Shown here: positions 1 to 17,585 of the stretch, piece after piece
How positions within the stretch are numbered: position 1 is the first letter of the stretch
Layout of the letters: each line of letters opens with the position of its first letter
Origin: Eledone cirrhosa
Taxonomy: Eukaryota
Assembly (NCBI GenBank): GCA_964016885.1
Contig: OZ024740.1
Span: 425,568,001-425,632,000, forward strand
Direction of reading: 5' to 3'
DNA: 64,000 nt
Notes under the pieces: model-generated
Told to the model about the DNA's origin: nothing
Database searches by the model: none
What the model saw: the letters and a program-made list of their open reading frames with translations, nothing else
Translations under genes and position numbers: made by a program

Positions 1-414
1 ATGCAGTGTCTCGACAGCTAACAACTGATGCAGGTAGTTTGTTCCATGGAGGTTTTAAAGGATGCAGTGTCTCGACAGCTAACAACTGATGCAGGTAGTT
101 TGTTCCATGGAGGTTTTAAAGGATGAAGTGTCTCGACAGCTAACAACTGATGCAGGTAATTTGTTCCATGGAGGTTTTAAAGGATGCAGTGTCTCGACAG
201 CTAACAACTGATGCAGGTAGTTTGTTCCATGGAGGTTTTAAAGTATGAAGTGTCTCGACAGCTAACAACTGATGCAGGTAGTTTGTTCCATGGAGGTTTT
301 AAAGGATGAAGTGTCTCGACAGCTAACAACTGATGCAGGTAGTTTGTTCCATGGAGGTTTTAAAGGATGAAGTGTCTCGACAGCTAACAACTGATGTAGG
401 TAGTTTGTTCTATG
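1..414. repeat. 61-bp minisatellite (~6.8 copies, runs off the left edge), derived from the LINE 3' coding end
   Basis: GTGTCTCGACAGC recurs at 6, 67, 128, 189, 250, 311 and 372 (period 61). On the minus strand the unit encodes WNKLPASVVSCRDTSSFKTSM, the continuation of the adjacent LINE ORF2. Confidence 0.95.
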
Positions 415-856
415 CTTCAGAAACTCTGAGCGTGAAAAAATGTTTCCGAAAGTCATGGGAGCTGTGCTGTTTTCTGACTTTGTTGGCATGCCCACGTGTG
501 TTAGACACATGGAAATCAAAAAGGTACTCAGAGTTGTTGTTGGCAAGATGGTTAATAATTTTGTGGGTGTTTACCAAGTCAGTTGCTAGATGTCAGAGCT
601 TCAATGTATCCATGCTCAGGGAAGCAAGGCGTTCAGAGTATGATAGATGCCTGATGGAGGGTATTCGCTTGGTTGCACGTCTCTGAACAGTTTCCAGGCG
701 GTCAATGTTCTGAGCAATATAGGGGTTCCAGACTGGTGATGCAAATTCTAAGTGTGGCCGCACCATAGCTATATATAACTTTAAATAGATAGCTGGAGAG
801 CGGCTGTCAAAGGTCATGCTGAGTGATGCTAAGACACCCTCGGCCTTCTTAACAAT
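350..856 (-). mobile_element. CR1/L2-type LINE, ORF2 C-terminal remnant (5'-truncated, with stop codons)
   Basis: Minus-strand translation IVKKAEGVLASLSMTF..LKLYIAMVRPHLEFASPVWNPY..IDRLETVQRRATK..LSYSERL..TRGHANKV..RKHFFTLRVSEA*NKLP matches the typical post-RT C-terminus of CR1/L2-group LINEs. It has two in-frame stops (TGA ~593, TAG ~410). Confidence 0.9.
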
Positions 857-1850
857 AGGTATAATAGCATATGCAGTTTATAAATAACTAACATTTTTAA
901 AGACATTTTATTTTATAGTATTTATTACGAGGGATCAGGCTCTGTCTCTTATTTTGTTTTTATGTTTTTATTCATTTAACTAGATATATTTTCATGTTTT
1001 TATTCCATTCTGTAATTTGAGGTTCAGTCACAGCAATGCACTAAGACACCAAGATTTGTTTGTTGCCTATTAATCTCATTGCTGTGATTGTCATTTTGAT
1101 TTTATTAATTTTTAACGAAAGAAATATAAGTTACCTTGGCGTAATTTCATAAAACTCAGGCAAAACAAAATTTCCCTACCCTTTTTTTTTTCTCATTTTT
1201 TTTTACGTCCCAAAATGTTTCTTTCCACGCCTTTTTCTTGGTTCGGTTAATTTTGGAGAAAATTTGATCAGGATTCAGAAAAACTCCCGCAATAAATGTG
1301 TCTGTTATGAGAACTGACACGGCGGCGTGGGGTGGGGATGGGGATGGGGTATGGGGGTTTATGATTGGAAATTAAAATTACGATATTAGGAATATATAAC
1401 TCTCATCATTTTTATGTGTCTACTAATGCACTCGTTCAGGCAATAATGACGGCAAATCGGTTTATCTTATTTAAATGTATTGAACATGGGAGGAAAATAA
1501 AGTTAGAATATAGAAAACTACGTTTATTTTTATTTGCACGATGGAAAGATTTTATAGGGAAACAATCTTGAATACACACACATGCGTACACACGCACACG
1601 CATAAAAGCACACATAAACACACAGAGTAATCAAGGGAGGTAACAAGAATAAGAACGGCGGTATCAATCTTTGCGTGACACGAAATATATAATTACACAA
1701 GTATATTTATTATAAGCGTGATTTATTTATTGTTTGAGTTTTATTATACACAAACGACGATATCGTATCAAGAAACAATATTCTTTTAACACTCTCTTCT
1801 CCCTCTTTTTCCATTCTTTCTTTCTTCCATTCTCCCTCTCTCCCTCCCCC

Positions 1851-1851
<1 letters not shown>

Positions 1852-1937
<86 letters not shown>
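1852..1937. repeat. (CT)n-(AT)n compound microsatellite
   Basis: Read directly from the sequence. Confidence 0.95.
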
Positions 1938-1940
<3 letters not shown>

Positions 1941-2328
1941 CTATCTGATTGTATAAGCATGTATACGACTGTGTATATATGCGTTTTGGGTTTGCAATCA
2001 CATTTCATGACGAAGACTTTAAAATCCAAATTCGCCGTCAGATAGTAGAGAAAGAGAACATGTTCTACTAACAACCATAAGCAGCCAGTATTAAAGTATT
2101 TCAAGAGATCCTATTAGACTGCCATTAGAAAAGTGTTAATTTTACACATTTTCGTAATTAAATTCTACATAGTACATAACACTTCATTGATTTCGAAGAC
2201 TTCAAGGCAGCAAAAGAATTCCGAAATCGCAAATCAAAATACTTTGATAATTTTTTCATCAACTTTACCAATGCCTTTAGACTAACACGAACAAGGTTCC
2301 GTGTTTCTATGTATGAATATACGTATGT

Positions 2329-2336
2329 ATCTATTC

Positions 2337-2433
<97 letters not shown>

Positions 2434-2436
2434 CCG

Positions 2437-2468
<32 letters not shown>

Positions 2469-2490
2469 ATATATGTATATATATATATAT
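2329..2490. repeat. (ATCT)n microsatellite followed by (CTTT)n and (AT)n
   Basis: Read directly from the sequence. Confidence 0.95.
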
Positions 2491-2737
2491 AAAATTAAAA
2501 TGGCTTAGACATTACAATACAATAAAATAGGCGGGAACATAATATTACCACTGATGATGTTGCAGATGTGCAACGAAAGAACTTTGATAGACTATATATA
2601 TGTATTTATATCTGTATTTTTAACTGTTGGTCAATCAATGATAAACGTTGATTGCCAAATAAATTAACTAAGGAGATATAAAAGATACAGAAGCTATAAT
2701 TTATTACAACAATATGGCCCTCCCCAAGTATGACTAT
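2491..2737 (+). mobile_element. Solo Penelope pseudo-LTR, subfamily 1 (copy A)
   Basis: Homologous to 12462-12790 and to the 3' end of the Penelope element (13485-13780, minus). Contains a hammerhead, GATATAAAAG, and the ORF-start remnant ATGGCCCTCCCCAAGTAT. Flanked by (TA)n. Confidence 0.85.
2545..2590 (+). ncRNA. Type I hammerhead ribozyme (minimal stem III)
   Basis: TTACCA-CTGATGA-T-GTTGCA(gatg)TGCAAC-GAAA-G-aa-CT-T/TGATAG. Intact core, perfect 6-bp stem II, stem I with one mismatch, predicted cleavage after 2584. Confidence 0.85.
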
Positions 2738-3234
2738 ATAACTATATATATATATATATCAACTAAAACAGATGGGTGGGTAGTGAAGCACAAGAGAGAC
2801 TGTCTGTTTTAGTAACAAAGGGAATTTGTCAAACACACATGTATGTTTTCCACTATTTCATGAATGTCAGTAATTATTTCTTTACCATCGATGATATGGT
2901 TTTCATTTCACTTTCTATGTCATTCACCCTTACTATATAGTGAGGGAGACTCTATAAGTTCACCCTGCTAGAAATAGCAGCCAAATTATCCTTGAAAACA
3001 AAACAAATGTCTTAAAAAGAAAATATGTTGGATGAAGCAATCCATGATTGCTTACATACATGGTTCTTTAACTTCTGATGGAATCGCATGGGGGCCATAT
3101 TGATATGAAGTATTTCTAGGGGATTAGAAAACCTGTTGGGGCCCATCTCCTCTCTAGGTCTTAATACAGCAGATTTCTTGCGGAGAAGGATAGAGAGAGT
3201 GACAGAAAGGAAGTCCGAAAGAGACATAGAAGAA

Positions 3235-3394
3235 GAATCGACCCCAGTACTAGACTGGTACTTTTTTTATCGATCTAGTATGGATGAAAAGTAAAGTTGA
3301 CTTCGGTGGGATTCGAACTCAGAGAGCAGAGAGCCAGAACGAATAACACAAAGTATTCTAAGCGGCGTTCTAACGGTTCTGATAATGTACTGCC
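3235..3394 (-). mobile_element. tRNA-derived SINE (diverged)
   Basis: Minus strand GGCAG..AGAACCGTTAG..GAGTTCGAATCCC (B box), then CTTTTCATCC..TCGATAAAA..AGTACCAG..ACTGGGGTCGA. Resembles abundant octopus SINEs as I recall them; not checked by search. Confidence 0.7.
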
Positions 3395-5050
3395 CTTAAT
3401 CCAAGTTGTATTATGCCTGAATACACGATGGTCTGGAATTAGAGAATAGCAGGTTGGGATGCAGGAACGGCTCACTGCTTATGACGTTTGTTTTGCAACC
3501 CTGCTTTTAGTTCGACCCAACATCGAATCACTTTGGTCTAGCGGTTTGTTTCGTGTGTGTGTGTATATAATTTCAATGATGTATATCTTCGAAATATGTG
3601 AACATCGATGAGAAAAACCGCTAAATTGTTTTTTTGCTTTTTTTTTCGATCTAAAAATGCTTTGTGATATTTATTCCTCACCGAGTTGAACAGGGAGTCC
3701 CTTGTCACTCTCGCAATCAGAGATTCATTGTACCGGGGATTAGCCCATTGAAAATTTGTAATCAAAGGGGCTATTGTTGACAAAGTAAAGATATATTAGC
3801 TAAAGCCATGAATATTTCAACACTACTAAGATTTGAGAAAGCTCATAGTAACTTTTCCAAAACTAACATCACTGGCAACCATCAAAATCAAGCTAACCAT
3901 TATAACACACATGAAATAAACACAACCTTACCCCCCACATCATCCCCAACAATGACCTTTATCTCTATCATTGATTGGATGTCAAATCTATCTACAAAAG
4001 AGCCAGCAAATAAGCTGCAATTAGCGGCCAGTTCTAAGAATTTCTAATTGCAAGTTCAATCATTAGGAAACAGATATACTTACTGACCTTAGTTGGCAAC
4101 GTATTTACAACTATTGGCAAGCACACTTACCAAGTCTTGGCACTGAAACTTTCAGAAAGTAAACAAGAAACATGCGCATTTCCATTCTCTGAGCTCTCTA
4201 TTTGTCAGTTGGCTTATTTCGTCTATCTTGATTCTAAGTTCTAACTACAGAAAGCCGCTTATTATAATCGTAAATAGTATCATCTCATCAGAATTAATTC
4301 TATCATGCAGATATTGTTAGAAAAATGCTTAGAACCAAAGTGATTACAATAAACGGTTTCCAGAGTATATAGTTAGAGGTTTACTAAGAGTCAATCTAAT
4401 GTGAGAATCCTCTGCTCTGTCACATGATCTTCTAGAAAGGGTAATAAACTCACCCTCAAATATTACGTTACTCCTCTTAAAATGGATAATGTAGACTACT
4501 TCCTAAAACAATCAAGATGGCCATGGGTGGAGCACATATGAACACACATTTGCTCAATCAGTAGTTGGAAAAATCAAGAAGTCACTGTGAATGTTAGATT
4601 CCTTTTGAGTAAATTCGAATGCTGTTTTTTATTTATTCACTAGCCCAGTAATCCTGCAATTGATTGGTGCCCTGTTACGGATTTCTCATTTCTTGAGTTC
4701 TAATTTCACCGTGAGAAAGTTTGCACTTTATCACTATCAGGGTGGGTTTCCAAAGTTCTTTGCGTTCTGAATTAAAATCCCACCTCTTATCACCGACCTC
4801 TTCATAGCAAGAAACTAGTCCCTCGGGACCCAACCGATGGTGAGAATGTTAAATGGAATGACATGTCTGTTGGAACATCTTGCTCATCGCATCAATAAAT
4901 CAAATAGACTTCGTACAAAGCGAGATAAGTTACTGATTTGATTTAATAGTACTCGGTCATACTGGGGCACTCTTTTGATTTTTTTTTATTTCAAATTTAT
5001 TTTTTTGTTTAATTTGATCTTTTTCTTTGTTTTCTAAATTCATTTCTAGA

Positions 5051-5150
5051 ATGGCGTATTGATTGAAAAGTTCACTTCACAATTATAAGTTCTAGGTTCA
5101 ATCCCACTGCTTAGAACTTGAAGCGAGTGTATTTGTTTAGACCCCGAGGA
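5051..5150 (+). mobile_element. tRNA-derived SINE head (diverged)
   Basis: A-box-like TGGCGTATTGATT and B-box-like GGTTCAATCCC, followed by ACTGC..CTTGAAGCGAGTGT. Confidence 0.5.
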
Positions 5151-5289
5151 AGATAAATGGTTGATAACATTCATGAGTTCGGTTGGTCTCGCATGTTGAT
5201 CCAGCTGGAGAGCCCTTCAGGTTGATTCTACATGTAATTCAAAGTACAGCCATTTATATATTGTGTCATGCAGATTCTGTCTGAAAAAT

Positions 5290-5466
5290 ACGTTAATTGT
5301 ATACATATGAGAGGAATACTCAACCAACTACACGTTAATTGTATACATATGAGAGGAATACTCAACCAACTACACGTTAATTGTATACATATGAGAGGAA
5401 TACTCAACCAACTACACGTTAATTGTATACATATGAGAGGAATACTCAACCAACTACACGTTAATT
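5290..5466. repeat. 42-bp minisatellite, 4 perfect copies plus a partial copy
   Basis: ACGTTAATTGTATACATATGAGAGGAATACTCAACCAACTAC at 5290, 5332, 5374 and 5416, partial at 5458. Confidence 0.95.
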
Positions 5467-5635
5467 CATGAGTGTTCTGCGTCTGCATGTTGTACGTGCA
5501 TATGTGTGTATCAGCATATATATGTTTGTATGTGTATATGTGTCGATCGACTTTCGTCAAATCGGACCGAGGAAACAATGTTTCCGTTGGTCTTTCCAAT
5601 TGCTAATACTATCTATCGGTCGCAACTCCAGGTAG

Positions 5636-5755
5636 AAGGAGCAACGTGAAATAGAGTGTCTTGCTCAAGGACATAACGCATCGCCCGGTCCAGGAATCGA
5701 ACTCACAACCTCATGATTGCGAATCCATTTCTCTAACCAATCAGCCACACGCCTT
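5636..5755 (-). mobile_element. tRNA-derived SINE
   Basis: Minus strand GGCGTGTGGCTGATTGGTTAG (A box) ..GAGTTCGATTCC (B box) ..TGTCCTTGAGCAAGACACT, a common SINE central-domain motif. Confidence 0.75.
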
Positions 5756-6053
5756 TACGCATGTGTATGTGTGGGTAAAATAGATTAATTTTGTTTTGTT
5801 TCTAACAAGTATTAACCAATGAAAACGCTCGTATAGTCAACTACCTTCACGGGTTTCACGAGTTTAACGTTCAGTTGATCAAACGAATGAATACTCATCG
5901 TCGAAGCTGACAAAGGATCCAGTGTTTCTTTCCCTCTATTTCATTTGTTTTCTGTACTATTGTTGCCATCTTTCACTGTGATTCTTTCTTTGTTGTTCTT
6001 CTTTCCTTCATACCTTTTCCCCAGGTCAATCTTCTCTCTTTTCTCTCTTTTAA

Positions 6054-6372
6054 TTACAATTGTTTTATATTTCGTTTCTGAATTTGTTTAGCAAGATTCT
6101 TTATCTGAAAACGTGTGTTGAAACCGATATTGTTATACTTTGGGAGGGTCATGTTGCCAATAAGAAACACACGCACCAGTTGCTTTCACTCCAATTTATT
6201 ATAAATTAAATTTATAAATTTAAGAATTTATAAATTTCCGGTTGGTTCCACAACCGGACGGTTGTTCATATACTGTCAAAGTTCTTTCGCCACACATTCT
6301 GTGACTTCTTCAGTGACTGAGGATTATTTTCTTTATTTTTGTGCCTCTCCTTTGTTCTGTCCTACGCCATCT
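6054..6372 (-). mobile_element. Penelope pseudo-LTR, subfamily 2 (copy D), with ORF N-terminus
   Basis: Inverted near-copy of 9750-9998 with a hammerhead at 6274-6318. The ATG at 6152 begins MTLPKYNNIGFNTRFQIKNLAKQIQKRNIKQL*, homologous to MTLPKYNDICFDTRFHIK at 12726. Confidence 0.8.
6274..6318 (-). ncRNA. Type I hammerhead ribozyme
   Basis: Minus strand GTCA-CTGAAGA-A-GTCACA(gaatg)TGTGGC-GAAA-G-aa-CT-T/TGAC. Confidence 0.85.
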
Positions 6373-6731
6373 TGTTTTTGTGTGTGTGGTGTGCTTAGTT
6401 TGCGCATGTGTTACATCCGGGTGTCTGTGTGTGTTTATATTCTTTCCCTGTTTTTTCTTTCTTTCCTTAATCCACACATCTCATCTCCTTCACTCTACAT
6501 TCAATTTCTCATTTAACTCTTTCTTTATTTTCTAGGGATCATCATATACTTTCAATATAATCTTCCTTCCTTCCTTCCTCCCTTCCTTTCAACCTATTTA
6601 CACTTTATCTTCTCTCTTCTTTTTCTAAAGTCACAATTGCTTTTTTTCTTATTTTCATCTTAATATTATACTTTATATATTTCTTCTTTTCTTTTCTGTC
6701 CTTTCCTTACCTTCTGCCTCCTTTATTTCCC

Positions 6732-7475
6732 TACCACCACTACCACCACCAAACACATCACCTCCACCACCACTACCACCACCACCCCACCAAACAAACA
6801 ACCACCACCAAACACATCACCTCCACCACCACTACCACCACCATCCCACCAAACAAACAACCACCACCAAACACATCACATCAACCACCACTACCACCAC
6901 CACCACCATCAAACACACAACCACCACCAAACACATCACATCAACCACCACTACCACCACCAACACCACCACCAAACACACAACCACCACCAAACACATC
7001 ACCTCCACCACCACTACCACCACCACCACCAAACACATCACATCCACCACCACTACCACCACCAAACACACAACCACCACCAAGCACATCGCCTCCACCA
7101 CCACCTCCACCACCACCATTACCCACACTACCACCACCAGCACCAAAACCACCACCACCACCACCACCACCAACACCAACACCACCATCATCACCACCAC
7201 CACCACCACTAAACCCCCCCCCCCCACATCACCACCATCACCACTACAACCACCACCATCACTACTAAAACCACCACCACCACCACCAACACCACCATCA
7301 ACCACCACAACCACTACCATCACTACTAAAACCACCACCACCACTACCACCACAACCACTACCATCACTACTAAAACCACCACCACCACCACTACCAACA
7401 ACAACACCAACACCAACACCGCCACCACCACAACCAACACCACCACCAACACCACCACCACCACCACCACCACAC
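6732..7475. repeat. (ACC)n-based cryptic simple repeat
   Basis: About 740 bp of ACC/ACA triplets with recurring AAACACATCA subunits. Confidence 0.9.
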
Positions 7476-7763
7476 ACTATCAAACACCGTTACTTTTCCT
7501 ACAACCCACTACACCACCCTGACCACCTACATCTCTACACGTTTCGTCCATTTATCTATAATATGCCTAAGATAAAGTGACCATTTACCATAAATCTAAC
7601 CACAGGCGCTATTGTTTACAGCGACTAAAGCAAAGATTGCAGGAATCAAATTTCATGGCAGGCCAGTTAAAATGTTTCTCTGTAGAATGTGGAATATAAT
7701 GAAAACCTAGTTTCTGTATACACACACATACATGCAAACACAGACACACAGACACACAGACAG

Positions 7764-7805
<42 letters not shown>

Positions 7806-7811
7806 GTATAT

Positions 7812-8005
7812 ATAGGAAAAGTGTCAGGACCCGGACGGCAGAGCTCAAGCCGTTTCGACGGCTATTCTGGACAGAAATAGCCGTCGAAACGGCTTGAGCT
7901 TTGCCGTCGGGGTCCTGACTCTTTTCTATTACCCACTTCACTACCCAAAGTATCGAGTACTCTGGTGCGTTATGGTCCACCTGGTTCCTTACCACACTTC
8001 CTTCG

Positions 8006-8008
<3 letters not shown>
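7812..8008 (+). mobile_element. Short fold-back element (~55-bp inverted arms plus tail), probable Penelope pLTR remnant
   Basis: Arms 7812-7866 and 7876-7929. Contains GAAACGGC-ttgagcttt-GCCGTC, the 3' half of a hammerhead. A second copy lies in opposite orientation at 12803-13000. Embedded in (CA)n/(TA)n. Confidence 0.7.
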
Positions 8009-8094
<86 letters not shown>

Positions 8095-8270
8095 AGAGTC
8101 GCGACTCCGACAGATGAGCTCTTGCTGTTTCAACAAGCTATGTTTGTATGTATGTATGTAAATGTTTATATATGTATTATGTATGTATGTATGTATGTAT
8201 ATATGTATGTATGTATATATGTATGTATTATGTTATATGTTTTATGTTTTATTATGTATTATTATGTTAT
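8008..8270. repeat. (TA)n and (TATG)n microsatellites
   Basis: Read directly from the sequence; interrupted by a short non-repetitive insert at ~8092-8140. Confidence 0.9.
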
Positions 8271-8575
8271 GTCAGGTCACCAGCTGGTGCTACTGGTAAC
8301 ATGTATCCCAGTACAACTTGTCTCATGGTCGGGTCTTTGGCGACTAAACTGAAAACCCCACCAAGGTTTCTTGGTGAGGAGGGTGATTTTGGACATCCTG
8401 CAGGACTAAAAACAAAACCTGTCATAGGGAAAAGGAGCTCTTAAGAGTCAATGGCCATCCAAAATCACCGGGAGAGATGACCCCTTAGTCTTTGTCAAGG
8501 CAGAATTCTAGGAGAAAGAAAACTCTGATATAACACCTGCAACCCTGATGGTATCCAATGATGTTGACTTGTTCT
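8271..8575 (+). mobile_element. Possible RTE-clade LINE 5' UTR or RTE-related repeat fragment
   Basis: Higher-complexity block starting after a microsatellite. GGAGAAAGAAAACTCTGATATAACACCT resembles RTE 5' UTR motifs as recalled. No ORF support. Confidence 0.3.
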
Positions 8576-8944
8576 TCTTTTTGGTAAATATCATCTTGGT
8601 TAAGAGAGTGGGACTGGCTTTGTGCAGTGCCTTTTCTCACTATAAAAGTTTCACGGCACAGGCATTGCTTTATATCTGGAGATCTCTCTGCACTTGTCGT
8701 CACATGGTACCATGGGCCCAGCACTATGTGTTAATAATTGTCACAAGTGTAGTGTTTGTACCAGAGTTTTCAAGTCGCTGGCTGGACTAAAAAGTCACAC
8801 TAGTTCAGCGCATCGGTAGGGGTTCTCCTACATGGATATAAAGTAGTGGCCGTACTCGAAAACGAGTTGGCAGCCACCATATATGTATATATGTATGTAT
8901 GTATTACATATGTATGTATTTCATTCATTCATTCATTTAATGTT

Positions 8945-9085
8945 TACAGTAATTAGACAGCGGTCAGGCTGGAGCACTGTCTTAATTTAAAGGATCATAT
9001 ATCGCCCCTAGTATTTATGTTGTCAAGTCTAATACTTATTTTATTGGTCACATTTTGTCAAACCACTCATGGGTACGGAAAACGA
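8945..9085 (-). mobile_element. SINE 3' region fragment (diverged)
   Basis: TAGACAGCGGTCAGGCTGGAGCAC..ATCGCCCCTAGTATTTAT..TACTTATTTTATTGGTC. Shares a degenerate ATCGACCCCAGTACT motif with the SINE at 3235. Confidence 0.5.
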
Positions 9086-9301
9086 CTCCCCCCCCCCCCA
9101 CACACACATATATATATATACATATCCAAGGATGGTGTCCCAGCATGTCCTCAGCTGGATGGCTGGAACAGATAGAAGAATAAAAAAATATATGTAAACG
9201 GAAAAAATGAAACGAAATTTCATTTCCCACTCTTAGTACGGCTGTTACTTAAATATAAGTATGTACACGTACATACATATATGTATACAGACGTACAGTA
9301 G

Positions 9302-9339
<38 letters not shown>

Positions 9340-9749
9340 CATGCACACATATATAAATGCACGTATGGATTCACCGAACATTTATTATAATGCTCGGTGT
9401 GTTTGTAAACAAACATCCCGTATTAAGCCGTAGTGTCCAGCAACCATCGTTGCTCGTTTGTTCACACTGACAAAGGAACGCTGTACTAGTTTCAAGCTAT
9501 ATGTATGTATGTGTATATATATATGCATATATATATTATATGCAGTTAGATGACCAGTTAGGCTATTGTCACTGGTAGATCACGAAGTATCCTAGGGTAA
9601 GCATTCAACATCCTGCATCATCCCAGATTACATCTAGTGGTCCTGGCGGAATGTGAAGCATATCCACTGAAGAATAAGTATGCAAAATAGGTTTTTACAA
9701 TTTAGTCAAATATTTTCCGTTACAAATCTTTCGACGGGGTTGACGACTA

Positions 9750-9998
9750 TGCGTAGGACAGAACAAAGGAGAGGCACAAAACAAAGAAAAGAATCCCCAG
9801 TCACTGAAGAGGTCACAGAATGTGTGACGAAAGAACTTTGACAATATATGAACAATCGTCTGGTTGTGGAACCAACCAACCAACCAGAAATTTATAAATT
9901 CCTAAATTTATAAATTTAATTTATAATAAATTGAAGTGAAAGCAACTGGTGCGTGTGTTTCTTATTGGCAACATGACCCTCCCAAAGCATAACAATAT
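9750..9998 (+). mobile_element. Penelope pseudo-LTR, subfamily 2 (copy E)
   Basis: Reverse-complement match to 6128-6368. Ends ATGACCCTCCCAAAGCATAACAATAT and runs into (TA)n. Confidence 0.85.
9800..9842 (+). ncRNA. Type I hammerhead ribozyme
   Basis: GTCA-CTGAAGA-G-GTCACA(gaatg)TGTGAC-GAAA-G-aa-CT-T/TGAC. Perfect stems I (4 bp) and II (6 bp); predicted cleavage after 9838. Confidence 0.88.
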
Positions 9999-10108
9999 AT
10001 ATATATATATATATAAGTAATAATAATAAATTTGAAGACTAAAATCCAAAGAGGGCTCGATAAGGATAAATATATATCACATATATAAGAACCGTAGAGG
10101 AAATATTT

Positions 10109-10200
10109 ATTAAAATAACAGATTAAAGTTTAAGCAAAGAATCGCCCGTGAAGGGTGAAAGCAGCGATTCTTTGCTTAAACTTTAATCTGTTATTTTAAT
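10109..10200. repeat. Perfect inverted repeat, 37-bp arms, 18-nt spacer
   Basis: ATTAAAATAACAGATTAAAGTTTAAGCAAAGAATCGC / GCGATTCTTTGCTTAAACTTTAATCTGTTATTTTAAT. Confidence 0.92.
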
Positions 10201-11076
10201 ATATATTTATATATATGCCGGGCTTCTGCAGTATCCGTCTATCAATTTGACTCACGAGGCATTGCTCAATTCGAAGCTTCAGTAACCAACAGCCTCCTCA
10301 TTTCGATGCTGTCTCGTTAACCACACAGCAATACGTGTATCTACGTATCTATACATGTAACATTGACAACCCTTACATATCTTCATGGTGATCGGCCGTC
10401 GAAAAGAACGTGCCCAGTTTGCACTCCTATCGACGGTTTGCACTCCTACTGGTGGTCCTTCCAGAGTTCCATTGTCAAAAAAATAGTCGTACAGTAAGTG
10501 ATGAAAAGGATGAATAGGACCTGAAGTCAAAAACATAGAGAACGTGACATCCAGAGAAGAAAATATTTGCTGGGTTAAACAGCGATCGTCACGGGTGTTA
10601 TTGCAATATTGGCAACAAGTACAAAATCTATGATCATCAGCCGTCGAAATAGATGTGCAGTTTCCTTCCCTACCGGTGTTGCTGCTGGCTATCCGGGATC
10701 ATTCTGTCCTTGGAGTATTTAGACGAAAATCGAACAAAGAAGGAATGTCGTTTGTGAAACTCGAATTTTCGAACTTATTAAGCGCTGAGGAAATAAATTT
10801 ATAATAAAATGTAGACGCTCAGACGCTGGCAACACAGTTCCGCCTCTAAGGATCTTTACCCGAATTTATAGCAACTGATTGTAATTGCAGTTGGTTTCTG
10901 CGTCTGAGTTTCCTAAATCTTTTTATAAGACAAAATAAAACCTATGTATATAGAAGTAATTGTACGTACAGTAAGTGACGAAAGGGGCTAAGTAGACCTG
11001 GTGACGGAAGCATACACAGAGAATATCTCGTCCAGAGGAGAAAATATCTAGTTTTATGTATCTATGAATGTATGTG

Positions 11077-11315
11077 AAGGCACGGGGCTTCGTAGTTAGG
11101 GTATGCGGTGGTCATTTCTGGCGGCGTGTAGTGTCCCCGAGAAAGTCAGTATATTTCCCGTTTCTCTAGTCTACCCAGCTACATTCATACATTGTGCCAC
11201 GGCGAATCTTCACTAGAACGTACGGTAATGCTCAGAAACTTGCGCGTTAATTCCGCAAATAGTATACTACCTTGGTGAAAGAACTGGAACATTCATCGTC
11301 GGAACCGACCGAGGT
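11077..11315 (+). mobile_element. Diverged tRNA-derived SINE (same type as 5636-5755)
   Basis: GAAGGCACGGGGCTTCGTAGTTAGG head and GTGTCCCCGAGAAAG..TATTTCCCGTTTCTCTAGT. Tail motif TCATCGTCG is also seen at ~5895. Confidence 0.45.
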
Positions 11316-11324
11316 CCAACAGTA

Positions 11325-11810
11325 CGTATGTACATACATACATATGCACATACATAAGTACATACGTATGAATGAATGTGGATAGGTTGTGTGTGTGTGT
11401 ATGTATGTATGTATATGTATATATATATGTATGTATGTCCTGGTTTTATTATTTTTATAAATCTTTGTATTTATGTATATACGCCCGTACGTATGTATGT
11501 ATGTATGTATGTATGTATGTATGTATGTATGTATGTATGTATGTATGTATGTATGTATGTATGTATGTATGTATGTACGTACGTACGTCCGTATGTATAT
11601 ATGTATGTATATATGTAAGTATGTAAGTAAATATTTATGTATGTATGTATTTATATATGCATGTATGCGTATGTATGAATTTATATATGTATGTTTATGT
11701 TGTATGTATATATGTATGTCTATGTATTTATTTATATATGTATGTCTATGTATGTATTTATATATGTATGTATGTGTATGTATTTATATATGTATGTATG
11801 TGTATGCATA
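11325..11810. repeat. (TATG)n microsatellite and degenerate flanks
   Basis: Read directly from the sequence. Confidence 0.92.
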
Positions 11811-12279
11811 GTTAATTAACTCTATACGTGAGAAGAAAATAAAATAAATCGTGGCGAAGGGCGGAGATTGCTACTGGAAAAAAAAATAAAAAAACAAAAA
11901 ATAAAACCACACACACAAAAACCAACGAAGATCCAAATTAAAGATATTGAACACTGCCAATGTCAGGACACATATCAACGTTAGTTTAAATCAGGAAATG
12001 AAAATACGATGATGTTCGTAGCCATCTTGCCACATAAATAGCCGATGACTATTGGTCAAATGTCATAGACAGTCATGTGGTACATGCATATTATTGCAAG
12101 ATAGTTATATGTATTTTCACTCTAATAAAATGCAGAGATTCAACGTTGGGGTGGGGTGGGACTGGTTTATATTTGAACCACCAAGAGAGAGACTATGTAG
12201 TCAGTCCAACATGGAGAAACACCAGTAAACCGGTTGTACACGGCGAATGATGTAGTCTTGAACCTCTTGTAAATAGGCA

Positions 12280-12367
12280 AATGGGTGAATAGATAAAGCT
12301 AGAAAGGGTTTGATCATATATAAAGATATATGATCAAACCCTTTCTAGCTTTGTCTATTCACCCATT
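12280..12367. repeat. Near-perfect inverted repeat, 42-bp arms, 4-nt loop
   Basis: AATGGGTGAATAGATAAAGCTAGAAAGGGTTTGATCATATAT-aaag-ATATATGATCAAACCCTTTCTAGCTTTGTCTATTCACCCATT, one mismatch. Confidence 0.92.
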
Positions 12368-12381
12368 CTGTTCTTATATAT

Positions 12382-12790
12382 AGTTATACTTGGGGAGGGT
12401 CATATTGTTATAATATTGCCAGAAATAATAACAGAACACACTAACTGTTTGGTTGGTTTATTAAATAAAATGGCGTAGACATTACGATACAATAGGAGGA
12501 AACATAATAGTACCATTGATGATGTTGCACATGTGCAACGAAAGAACTTTGATAGACTATATATATATATATATATATTTATATCTGTATTTTTAACCGC
12601 TGGTCAATAAATGATAAACGTTGATTGCCAAATAAATTAACTATAGAGATATAAAAGATACAGAAGTGAAAACCAACCAAACAGTGAGTGTGTTCTGTTA
12701 TTATTTCTGGCAATATTACAACAATATGACCCTCCCCAAATATAACGATATTTGTTTCGACACACGATTTCATATCAAAACAAACAAATA
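12382..12790 (+). mobile_element. Penelope pseudo-LTR, subfamily 1 (copy B), preceded by an inverted partial copy
   Basis: 12462-12790 matches copy A and adds the ORF start MTLPKYNDICFDTRFHIKTNK (ATG 12726). 12382-12459 is the reverse complement of ~12670-12746. Confidence 0.85.
12510..12555 (+). ncRNA. Hammerhead ribozyme, C3-to-U core variant (probably impaired)
   Basis: TACCA-TTGATGA-T-GTTGCAC(at)GTGCAAC-GAAA-GAACTT-TGATAG. Confidence 0.7.
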
Positions 12791-12802
12791 TATATATATA
12801 TA

Positions 12803-13000
12803 CATAACAAAGGAATTGTGGTAAGGAACCAGATGAACCATGACTCACCAGAGTACTCAATACTTAGGGTAGTAGAGTGGGAAATAGGAAAAAGTATGAC
12901 CCCGACGGCAGAGCTCAAGCCGTTTCGACGGCTATTTCTGGACTACAAATAGCCGTGGAAACGGCTTGAGCTCTGCCGTCGGGTCATACTTTTCCCTATA
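12803..13000 (-). mobile_element. Second copy of the short fold-back element (see 7812-8008)
   Basis: Tail 12803-12883 is the reverse complement of 7930-8008. Arms ~12884-12937 and 12947-13000 contain GAAACGGC-ttgagctct-GCCGTC. Confidence 0.7.
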
Positions 13001-13088
13001 TATATATATACAAATAAAATATAGAGTTATTAACTCATATTGATACCCTGCAATTAACAAGCTCAAAGTATAAATACTGAGCATTATA

Positions 13089-13478
13089 TAATATATGTAG
13101 AAATAAACACAGCAATTTCTGCGTCCAAAATTACGAGAGTAGATTTTACCACAAATGTTTATATATTTAAACTGAAACATACAGTTGGATACAAGATTTG
13201 CTATACATACCGTATTAATAACGATTTCATCTCTCGGAGACTAAAGATTTAATCTGTTTCGCCCTGAAAAAATTGTGTTTGTAACAGATAATCCTTAGGC
13301 ATTTTTTCAGGGCGAATCTTTAGTCAGTCCGAGAGATGAAATCGTTATTGATACGGTATGTATAGGAAATCTTGTATCTTACTGTATTTTTCAGTTTAAA
13401 TATATAAAACATTTGTTGTAAAATCTACCCTCGTAATTTTAGACGCAGAATTTGCAGTGTTTATTTCTACATATATTA
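13089..13478. repeat. Long imperfect inverted repeat (~180-bp arms), probable fold-back pLTR of another Penelope family
   Basis: Arms ~13089-13272 and ~13300-13478, e.g. TATGTAGAAATAAACAC / GTGTTTATTTCTACATA, CATACCGTAT / ATACGGTATG, TTCGCCCTGAAAAAAT / ATTTTTTCAGGGCGAA. Confidence 0.85.
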
Positions 13479-13689
13479 ATATATATTGTTATACTTGGGG
13501 AGGGTCATATTTGTGTAATATTGCCAGAATTAATAACAGAACACACTCACTGTTTGGTTGGTTTTCGCTTTTCGCTTCTGTGTCTTTTATATCGGTAATC
13601 TAATGTATTCGGTCCTCAATGTTGCCATTGACTGACCAACGGTAAAAAATAATACAGATACAATATAGACACACACACATATATATAGT

Positions 13690-13735
13690 TTATCAAAGTT
13701 CTTTCGTTGCACATCTGCAACATCGTCAGTGGTGC
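13690..13735 (-). ncRNA. Type I hammerhead ribozyme in the Penelope 3' pLTR (sense to the ORF)
   Basis: Minus strand ACCA-CTGACGA-T-GTTGCA(gatg)TGCAAC-GAAA-G-aa-CT-T/TGAT, ~280 nt downstream of the ORF stop. Confidence 0.87.
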
Positions 13736-14008
13736 TATTGTTTCCTCCCGTTACATTGTATGTCTACGCCATCTTTATTTAGTCTGTTTATATATTTATT
13801 TATTTATTTGTTTGTTTGTTTATTTTATTTTGTCTTCTTTGGCATGCGTTTGCGTGTGTGTATAGTGTTTTGTTTGATGTGTGTTCGTGATTGGGTGACT
13901 GTGTATTGGTTAATGTATTCTATCTTTACTAGTGTGTGTTTATATGTGTTTGTTGTTATTGTGCTTGTTTATGTATTTATTTATTTATTTATCTATTTAT
14001 TTATTTAT

Positions 14009-15373
14009 TTATACTTCTCTTACGTCAGTGTTGTTTGTTTGGGTGTTGTTGTTATTCCATTCATTCTTTCTGTTTAGCCTTGGCCTTCTAAGTTCTATTT
14101 CATTGGCCTCTCTGATTTGCCTATCTGCTGGGTCATTTCTATGTTTAGATATTATTCTAATTTCTATGTTGTCTATGTTACCGTCGTGTTGTTGTCTGGC
14201 ATGTTCGTATAGTACTGATCCGTTTTTTCGTCCCTTTAGTTCCCCCCAGTGTTGGTCTATCCTTTCACCTATGCTACGAGCTGTCTCGCCTATGTATGTT
14301 GTTGTCATGTTTCTGCAAGTACCCTCTGTACATCTTATGCTATAGACTACGTTTCTAGTTTTACAGTTTATCCGGGGGTTTACCTTACATATGATACATT
14401 TCCTATTAGTACAGTGGGTTTTCTTAAAAGGGTAGGTTTTGCTGATCAGGGATTTTATGGTGGTTCCTGGCTTTTCTACCACCTTAATCTTTAAGTGGGT
14501 CTTTCTCAGGGCCTTTCTACACTGGTTAGCTAATTTCCCTCCAGGGGTAGCGTCCACAAACATGACACTCTGGTATCTCTGGTTGTCGTACCATGAGGTG
14601 GCTTTCCCTATCTTATGTCTAGCCCTATCTAAGCTATTCCATGATTTGCTCCTGTATAATGGGCAAATTCCTTTGATGTCCAGTTCTATGAGGGTCTTAT
14701 ACTTCTCCATGGCTCCTTCGTATACTCTGACTCTGTCTCTTTGGTTGTAGCCAGAGAACTGCATGCGGTTGATGAAGTGTTGGATGTGTCTTTCCATTTC
14801 TGTTGGGTCGCACATGCGGGACACATTCTTCATCACTCGTACCAAATCTGCGATCAGAATATTAAACTTAGCACTACTGGACATTGCTGAGTTTTTGAGT
14901 ATCAGGTATTTGGAGGCCATGGGTTTAGCATAGTGTGAGTGGAGAATTTGGGCTCTCTCGTCTATAGTGTTAATCCAGAGTTCCGTGTCTAATACAGGTA
15001 GTCTATTGTTAGGGTGTTTGGAAGGGAAGTCGATAGTTACAGTTATACTCTGGTGTATGGAATTAGCTATCTGCTGGATGCTTTCCATTGTGCTACGTTC
15101 TAAATCAAACTTGTTAGTGCTCTCTAGTGGGGATGCTCTTATAACTATATTGATATCGTCTACGTAACGAGAGTACATGATGAGGTCTATGGAGCTCTCA
15201 TTAAGGAGATCTTTAAGTCTCCTTTCCCACCATACCATAAAAAGGTTGGCAACATCACCAGCTATGCTGACGCCAATGGCTGCTCCCTCATTTTGGGTGT
15301 AGATCTCGTTGAACTTGAATATATGGCCCTTTAGGGTAGTTTTGATACTAGCCCCTATTGCATGTGCGACCAT
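14009..15373 (-). pseudogene. Penelope polyprotein C-terminal part: RT motifs 4-7, thumb, Cys-rich linker, GIY-YIG endonuclease
   Basis: FKFNEIYTQNEGAAIG, YSRYVDD, LPVLD, CTNRKCIIC, NVVYSIRC...YIGETARSIGERIDQH, RQIREA..I..RPRLN. Confidence 0.93.
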
Positions 15374-15386
15374 TTTTCTTACCTGA

Positions 15387-15899
15387 TCATTGTTTTGGGG
15401 GGTCCCTATAGCTTTGGTCCACCCAATCCACCTTTTTTGTCATTGAGGTTATGGTGGGGGGTCTACCTCTTATAGGTCTACTAGGGCAGAAACGTCTAAG
15501 GTCATGGCTGTCTAGGTAGTCAGTGTCGTAGGTAAGTCTAAGTAGGAGGCCCAGTTCGTATGTGTCGACGTCGCAGAACTCCACTTCACTCTCAATGATC
15601 ATCTCCACACATTTTTCCACAGCAAAATCAATGTTAATGGATGGGTACAGTGACACCACATCCATGCTGCCTATTATGCAGTTGGATAGGTTCCTGTTTT
15701 TGTTGCACTCACTGATTCTGCTGAGGAGGTCCTCTGTACTGTCACATACATCTGGGGACATCTTGATTATGGGGCGTATAACCATTGAGAGGAAGTAGGA
15801 GATCCTGTTGTTGCTAGCTATATTAGCTCCGCATATGGGTCTTGTTGGTGGTCCTGTTGTCGGGTCGTCGACTGTCTTGTGGTCTTGGAGCCCATACAA
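15387..15899 (-). pseudogene. Penelope RT motifs 1-3 fragment (frameshifted)
   Basis: MYGLQDHK..PPTRPIC (YGLxKxHK / P-RPI of Penelope RTs) and GSMDVVSLYPSI. Confidence 0.9.
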
Positions 15900-16415
15900 G
15901 GGTGGTATGCGACTGTTAGACGCCTGGAAGTTGTTGGCAGTGCGTCTGCTTGCTTTAGGATGTCAGTCCACATCATCATGTGAGCGTTGAGGATTTTCTC
16001 TCTCCCATCATGTGTTTGCTGTGCAATTTCGCTCGTGTTGGTGATGTGGGGTTGCATAGCCTTGATGTAGTTCGGCATGCTAACTATTGACATCCTACCA
16101 GACTTATCCGTGGGTAGACATAATACCTCACCATCCCTTGTGCGCTGCTTGAGGCTAACCAAGCTTTCTACAGGTTTCCTCCCAAGTTGTTGGGCCTCTG
16201 GTCTGCTCTGTCTCTCAGTATACCGGTCTACTATTTGTCTAATCTTATTTCTAGCTATGGTGAACTGTGCCTCTGTCTCGTCATCTATTTGCTGTGGTAT
16301 GCAAACTCTTTTATTAAAGGGTAACCTCGTAGGATAGATATTACCCATCATATATGTTTTGTCAGCTGGGTTGAAAAATAGTTTCTCTAAGGGGTTGTCA
16401 TTATATCTATCGTCA
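15900..16415 (-). pseudogene. Penelope pre-RT region fragment
   Basis: PTRLPFNKRVCIP..SLKQRTRDGEVLCLPTDKSGRMSIVSMPNY. The (P/A)DK(S/G) motif precedes Penelope RT domains. Confidence 0.85.
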
Positions 16416-16459
16416 TAGTATATATATAATATAGTATATGTAATATAGTATATATATAT

Positions 16460-16583
16460 AATATTGAAATGGCTTCTACAGGAGTAGAACTGTTTCATTC
16501 CGAGTAAATCATCAGGGAAGGGCTTTCCTGATGATTTCCTCCGAATGAAACAGTTCTAGTCCTGTAGAAGCTATTTCTATATT
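16460..16583. ncRNA. Palindrome with back-to-back hammerhead cores, one on each strand
   Basis: Plus strand CTTTC-CTGATGA(16528)-tttcctccgaat-GAAACAG-ttctagtc-CTGTA/GAAG. Minus strand CTTCC-CTGATGA-tttactcggaat-GAAACAG-ttctactc-CTGTA/GAAG. Stem II is weak. Confidence 0.65.
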
Positions 16584-17585
16584 AAATATCTATACACTGC
16601 TATGTATCGAATACCTTACTTACTGTGGTTACCCCCCGATTGAACCCGGGATACGTACACACACACACAGAGACACAGACAGACACACACACACACACAC
16701 ACATAACACACACACATATATATATATATAAAATACGGAGAACAGAATTCGAAGAGGGCTCAATATATTAACCACATATGGAAAAATGCAGGGCATAACA
16801 TTTTAAAATCAATTGACATCCAAATAGGTACTTGAAATATGATCAATCTAGCACATGAGAGCTTATTTAGTTTATTAGAACGGCCCCTCTACTATATAGT
16901 GGTGACCAGAACTGAACCCCGAAACCTAACGTCGCAAATAGATGTTAAATTTAATATAAACTGCGAGTCTTTAACTCCGTTTTTTCATTTGATATTTTGC
17001 CTCCTAATTTCTTTATTAGTTGAGCTTTCTAAGTTGAATGGTTATAGGTTGCCATTTCTAGCGGTCTCTTGGTCTATTCAAGCCACTGTATACTGTCTGG
17101 CGCGCGTGTTTTCGTTTCTCTCTCTCCGTGCTATTTTTCAGTTGTCTAAAATCTCTTTAGAAGTGTTGACCGTATCTTCTTTACACCTACCAACGAGCCC
17201 CGAGGGGTTATGGCACCAACACTGTTTAGGGCAAAACATTCTCTTCTTTCAGTCTGTCCAGGTGTTTCATAGTTATAAAGGTGAGTCTGTACATTTTAAT
17301 TTATCTTTTTAATTATTTTGTATTTCCACTCCTTTCGTAGACTTTATGTTCTTCACACTAGTGGTTCTATACCCCTCGTAATTGAAAACATACCCTTTTT
17401 GTGTATTCTCCTCTATTTATTGTATTATGAAGAGTCGGTACTTATTCCTTGAGCTCATTAATTGCAGGGTGTTAACACAAGTCTTAAATTTCGTTTCTTC
17501 ATTTCATATATATATTATTCTTTAGTTCCCTTTGGTCTTTATGGAGCATCTCGTGACTCTAGTCATTTCTAGAGCGATTTTGATT

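Follow-up and report, generated by a model that had tools for sequence, protein, structure and literature searches.

A stretch of 64,000 nucleotides from the genome of Eledone cirrhosa (contig OZ024740.1, positions 425,568,001 to 425,632,000; hereafter the window) contains five hammerhead motifs. All five are genuine copies of a small hammerhead motif already known from Penelope-like elements (PLEs). We consider it probable that the hammerheads in the pseudo-long terminal repeats (pLTRs) of two abundant PLE lineages, A and B, cut weakly, through a helix III formed between two copies and/or with the help of the element's protein, and that they trim or circularize the element RNA in this way.

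Identification of the five hammerhead motifs

The original prediction, made from the sequence of the window, had placed five hammerhead cores in it, and each was read there as described. Three belong to lineage A: 2547..2588 (+) and 12512..12553 (+), both of subfamily A1, and 13692..13733 (−), of subfamily A2. Their predicted cut sites lie after 2584, 12549 and 13696, respectively, and stem I of the first contains a C·A mismatch. The other two, 6275..6317 (−) and 9800..9842 (+), are lineage B motifs (B1) with predicted cuts after 6279 and 9838. The core CUGANGA ... GAAA ... UH is intact in four of the five copies. The exception is the motif at 12512 (the 12510 copy), which has the predicted U at C3 together with an unchanged G8 (C3U without G8A). 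With its C3-G8 pair broken, this copy is probably inactive, as judged from its bases. Position N7, also predicted to vary, is U, A, A, U and C across the five copies.

A strict structural descriptor recovered three of the five copies in window positions 1-17,400, compared to a mean of 0.03 and a maximum of 1 in 200 dinucleotide shuffles of the same region. The 12510 copy was passed over because its U3 is not accompanied by A8, and the motif at 13692 (the 13690 copy) because of its weak stem I. The Rfam check that had been proposed gave no hammerhead: none of the 54 matches obtained in a covariance-model scan at E ≤ 10 was a hammerhead row. Folding energies of the five copies were no better than those of shuffled sequences (z −0.4 to −1.2). 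Therefore, the case depends on motif, covariation and genomic context, and these support the claimed hammerhead identity.

The host is a Penelope-like element with an endonuclease

The 13690 copy belongs to a 5'-truncated, frameshifted PLE at 13462..16419 (−), in which a reverse transcriptase (RT), a CX4CxxC linker and a GIY-YIG endonuclease are followed by the 3' pLTR and a tail. The element matches a full-length A copy at 94%. Its open reading frame (ORF) pieces extend over 16410-14009, and a copy of the ORF-start ATG is found at 13508. RT motifs, the linker CTNRKCIIC and the GIY-YIG domain were read in the translation of ORF 16410-14009 (−), and the stop codon of this frameshifted ORF is 280 nt upstream of the motif's C3. 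The RVT_1 match to the ORF was weak (E 0.003, below the Pfam cut-off), and a PDB sequence search gave a weak RT match only. Atlas neighbours of the protein carry HTH_animal and GIY-YIG.

B-type motifs were found 3' of a related ORF in loci L001, L010, L018, L020, L025 and L029, and the lineage A and B proteins share 65% identity over 468 aa. In the translations of both, the RT is followed by a GIY-YIG endonuclease at the C terminus, with CCHH residues, and the linker between the two domains agrees with CX2-5CxxC (CTNRKCIIC in lineage A, CIDKKCITC in lineage B). This linker is a mark of Neptune/Nematis-type PLEs (bioRxiv 2021.04.23.441226). Assigned by the linker motif, the host would be an endonuclease-containing (EN+) PLE of the Neptune/Nematis type.

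In full-length copies (L097, L098, L100, L145, L150), two same-strand motifs are located 4,058-4,260 nt apart around the ORF. The ORF starts at MTLPKYNNI, and insertions end at the same place; the motif follows the ORF stop by 280 nt and precedes the ORF start in the next unit by 135-190 nt. The host element showed 5' truncation, partial tandems, inverted copies at the 5' end and a tail. In the full-length ORF, the N-terminal domain is separated from the RT by a long low-complexity stretch rich in Asn and Thr, which varies in length (L053-L075 upstream; L146).

The remaining four motifs lie in shorter insertions. At 2488..2763 (+), a 5'-truncated, pLTR-only remnant of lineage A is located between (TA)n tracts and ends in the ORF-start tail. 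A lineage B pLTR with the first ORF codons is found at 6066..6464 (−), matching a full-length B copy at 86%. The 5'-truncated lineage B pLTR at 9751..9998 (+) includes the ORF start (MTLPK) with its ATG at 9973 and borders on a (TA)n tract. Finally, the lineage A pLTR at 12464-12780 (+) carries an inverted 85-nt copy of the tail at its 5' end (12459-12375, −), so that the whole insertion covers 12375..12780. Each motif thus sits in a pLTR of a PLE encoding RT and GIY-YIG, which bears out the claimed Penelope pLTR link. A pairing of tandem pLTRs among the five copies was rejected, since each is a separate 5'-truncated insertion without a same-strand partner of its own. The five copies are likely inert remnants.

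Two further sequences of the pLTR were observed. AANATGGCG lies 40-60 nt upstream of each core (e.g. 13772-13763, −, and 12469-12478, +) and is kept in lineages A and B, although the remaining pLTR barely aligns. It resembles a YY1 site and might belong to the pLTR promoter. GTGAGTGTGTT / GTGCGTGTGTT, found shortly 5' of the ORF ATG in both lineages (13550-13535, −, and 9948-9960, +), resemble a 5' splice donor; introns are known from PLEs.

Stem pairing and constraint

Pairing and covariation were assessed in an alignment of ten hand-picked rows, comprising the five window copies and five subfamily representatives, in which 96.7% of the cells were paired. Helix II has 6-7 bp in all ten rows and is 100% paired; it is opened by G10.1-C11.1, with one unpaired base after A9. 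In helix I, all four pairs are formed in lineages B and C and three of four in lineage A. The ACCA/TGAT stem I had been presented as paired, but it contains the C·A mismatch in all four lineage A rows. Three pairs are changed on both sides, one in helix I and two in helix II. The covariation claimed for the stems thus stands as far as three compensatory pairs are concerned, but these separate only two or three related lineages.

Variation within a lineage was measured by aligning 11,339 contigs of run X1 to a B copy (X1-X3 are one sample); it rests on lineage B. The mapping to an A copy was interrupted by repeat masking over helix III and yielded nothing on that helix. Sites differing in at least 2% of the depth included N7 (4.7%), loop II (8.7%), loop III (9.3%) and N17 (18%). 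In these contigs, 4 of 10 free positions were variable compared to 2 of 33 constrained ones (Fisher p 0.02). Both variable constrained sites form one CpG at 2-3%, and without it p is 0.002. Subfamily variation is confined to tolerated positions.

Genome-wide, N17 is C or G in 433 matches (control 59) and 15.2 is a base other than G in 1,233 (control 68), levels that fit decay after insertion. The first 100 non-G15.2 matches were mostly single changes, and no compensating subfamily was seen among them. Searches for further covarying subfamilies at pair 10.2-11.2 (11 matches, control 5) and with a purine at 10.3 (34 matches, control 54) were also negative.

Copy number and subfamilies of loop III

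There are 16,799 exact copies of the 14-mer CGAAAGAACTTTGA in the 3.0-Gb genome (control 11) and 12,384 more copies with A in place of U at N17. Therefore, the family comprises at least 29,183 motif copies. GAAAGAACTTTGA had been described as invariant. This holds among the five window copies, but genome-wide both N17 and loop III differ by subfamily, N17 being U or A. All subfamilies retain the pair G15.2-C16.2 (or G·U). Among the first 100 A17 matches, loop III was AA in 44, GA (subfamily B3) in 39 and AU with U16.2 (subfamily A3) in 17. The AU-loop pattern gave 2,008 matches, and about 85 of the first 100 were A3.

Midpoint-rooted pLTR trees were built from 39 copies of lineage A and 47 of lineage B, without the loci that had been chosen for their decayed cores. 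The A17 copies form one group inside each lineage. A3 is more uniform than A2 (median pLTR distance 0.042 vs 0.062) and B3 more uniform than B1 (0.031 vs 0.053), with the medians lowered by pairs from one insertion.

The five window copies and the largest subfamilies have a non-palindromic AA loop III. Their hexamer AGAACU is not self-complementary and leaves two A·A mismatches in helix III plus loop 3. The predicted dimer energies of the hexamers were +2.4 kcal/mol for AGAACU, +0.2 for AGAUUU, −1.7 for AGGACU and −5.0 for the palindrome AGAUCU; AGAUUU, the hexamer of A3, is self-complementary via G·U pairs. Compared with AGAACU, both loop changes (GA and AU) thus improve the predicted pairing between copies. 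In the subfamilies that are more uniform, lineages A and B have each shifted separately to A17 and a better-pairing loop, which fits an intermolecular helix III; with two such events, this is no more than a hint. Tentatively, the AA loop might represent a throttled ribozyme common to the two lineages, independently re-tuned in the youngest subfamilies (U17 to A17; AA to GA or AU) toward stronger intermolecular pairing. If so, the family would provide the double-hammerhead model with a natural series of mutants, and A/B heterodimers could form. The subfamilies (loop III AA, GA, AG or AU; N17 U or A) are ready-made variants for testing a helix III between two copies.

Of 164 copies in the first 28 Mb of contig C1, 21 have a further copy within 5 kb on the same strand and 56 have one on the opposite strand. 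The adjacent opposite-strand pairs are mostly divergent (21 vs 7), the usual arrangement of a 5' inversion.

Comparison with published hammerheads

Minimal hammerhead ribozymes (min-HHRs) of metazoan PLEs have a long helix II, a short helix I and, between 9 and 10.1, a base (Cervera and de la Pena 2014, PMC4209133). Monomers were inactive and dimers weakly active (PMC4209133), and the model published for such motifs is that cleavage depends on dimers (PMC4209133, PMC6765202). By our own count, U17 is present in 24 of the 56 examples in Fig. S3 of PMC4209133 and CUU in three (Philodina, Oikopleura, Chrysemys). Three traits of the window copies had been called unusual (a stem II that is long and stable, one base inserted after A9, and a CUU triplet); all are already described for PLE min-HHRs in that paper.

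The Eledone cirrhosa motifs share with the PLE min-HHRs the type I core, a helix II of 6-7 bp from G10.1-C11.1, the base after A9, a 4-bp helix I, a tiny helix III, the pLTR position and thousands of dispersed truncated copies. Two differences were noted: loop III is a non-palindromic AA, both in the window copies and in the largest subfamilies, and helix I of lineage A contains the C·A mismatch. A palindromic helix III plus loop 3 is the >80% consensus in Fig. S3 of PMC4209133, the exceptions there being Hydra with loop AUU and Latimeria 3. The Oikopleura motif, with helix III AGAUCU and U17, is one base away from the AGAACU-U of the Eledone cirrhosa copies. The 56-row alignment of PMC4209133 is without a cephalopod example.

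Dimer-cleaving hammerheads with a diminished stem III (Lunse, Weinberg, Breaker 2016/2017), as summarized in PMC6765202, share the reduced stem III, the PLE association and dimer cleavage. The PAc hammerhead (Poseidon, Anolis; Frangieh et al. 2024, PMC11167929) likewise lies in a pLTR near the ORF start, and the tails in which PAc insertions end likewise fall within the ORF start. However, the PAc ORF begins inside the ribozyme, whereas here 135-190 nt separate the predicted cut from the ATG downstream of it. Poseidon is without the CX4CxxC linker, which the Eledone cirrhosa host shares with Neptune/Nematis.

Retrozymes have been linked to pLTRs (2026 retrozyme preprint). Non-LTR retrozymes have a type I hammerhead related to that of PLE pLTRs, but they are tandem repeats with one hammerhead per unit and no ORF. 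The five copies of the window are scattered, truncated insertions of an element with coding capacity and not head-to-tail repeats, and a retrozyme array over them was rejected. A comparable tandem array was observed elsewhere, at L147 (C1:117458000-117464500), where A3 motif fragments lie 0.8-1.7 kb apart in (TA)n-rich units and loop III alternates between AGAUUU and AGAUAU.

In a literature search that left subscription papers mostly uncovered, no paper turned up that deals with a non-palindromic loop in PLEs or with the motif in cephalopods. The word ribozyme does not occur in PMC13282606, and rates for CUU under the NUH rule were absent from the paper searched for them. Beyond the published description, we found only the loop that is not palindromic and the parallel change it has undergone. 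The family adds no new kind of RNA.

Possible mechanism and alternative explanations

Full-length elements carry two same-strand motif copies about 4.1 kb apart. A lone copy, with its 2-nt loop, would be unable to close helix III; in fold predictions, the probability of A15.1-U16.1 in the monomer is at most 0.014. Two copies could instead pair A-G-N-N-Y-U with each other. Weak cleavage after N17, through this shared helix III and/or with the element's protein, would then trim the element RNA to unit length.

Several observations weigh against this mechanism. The C·A mismatch in stem I is kept by lineage A (4/4 rows). Three doubly changed pairs are reached in 394 of 500 shuffles, and the covariation is drawn from two or three related lineages. 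Constrained sites do not differ significantly from the flanks, where 14 of 173 non-CpG sites are variable (p 0.13). The double hammerhead is the lowest-energy predicted dimer for no copy; in lineage A it is predicted at −4.0 kcal/mol compared to −22.8 to −27.0 kcal/mol for the lowest dimers. Finally, the AGAACU helix III is unfavourable as a dimer (+2.4 kcal/mol), yet the AA-loop subfamilies are the most numerous. Therefore, efficient dimer cleavage is not needed for spread.

The poor pairing of the AA loop as a dimer would be explained if the motif folded as a monomer on the element's own protein and pairing between copies played no part in vivo. Indeed, the PAc hammerhead cuts only when PAc protein is added (PMC11167929), and a same-strand neighbour within 5 kb was found for only 21 of the 164 sampled copies. 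We regard this explanation as possible but doubtful: every subfamily retains G15.2-C16.2 (or G·U), a pair that a 2-nt loop cannot close in a monomer, and both subfamily loop changes improve the predicted intermolecular pairing. Protein-assisted folding and pairing between copies are not mutually exclusive.

If linear RNA cut after N17 served as the template for insertion, 5' truncations would be expected to accumulate at the predicted cut. On contig C1, 15 true truncations (48 matches) were found there compared to 11 (21 matches) at a control position before G12, and a pile-up was rejected. This junction comparison suggests that insertion templates are mostly intact across the cut site, either uncut or re-joined. 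For PAc in vitro, uncut RNA is the main template and cleavage needs the element's protein (PMC11167929). The fold might also have been retained for another function than cleavage (in RT binding, or as a promoter or splicing element), with cutting being vestigial. The lack of a truncation excess would agree with such a role, as would the unchanged in vitro insertion of catalytic mutants (PMC11167929) and the spread of Naiad elements without hammerheads (bioRxiv 2021.04.23.441226). It is nevertheless improbable, as lineages with barely alignable pLTR flanks share the catalytic core and obey the NUH rule, a conservation that a binding site would not require.

A resemblance that arose by chance and was multiplied by a repeat family, the fold not being under selection, would agree with the unremarkable folding z-scores, the missing Rfam match and the few independent covariation events, but we give it hardly any credence because position and architecture fit the published PLE consensus, variation avoids core and stems, and the descriptor found 3 copies vs 0.03 in shuffles.

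Other repeats in and around the window

A different hammerhead-like motif, separate from the five copies, forms a head-to-head inverted pair at 16448..16595, with CUGAUGA at 16528 (+) and 16515 (−). It has a 3-bp helix II closed by U·U, a 4-bp helix III, an 8-nt loop with CUAG, and a GUA triplet. A 28-mer of this motif has 9,531 exact copies in the genome, and no match to a PLE ORF was found in 12 of its loci of 3 kb each. Other minimal hammerhead families of the genome (L096:7242, L100:8274, L050:1522) have a palindromic helix III (ACGU, ACUAGU), also with U17.

Most of the window (17586-64000) is filled by a 51-bp satellite with more than 850 copies at about 95% identity. A 61-bp tandem repeat is found at 1-414 (6.8 copies) and also in L050; in the window it is followed by a LINE-like C-terminal RT fragment at 593-877 (−). 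Short elements resembling miniature inverted-repeat transposable elements, with long internal or terminal inverted repeats, were observed at 7801-8027 and 12788-13010, at 12281-12366 and at 13089-13478.

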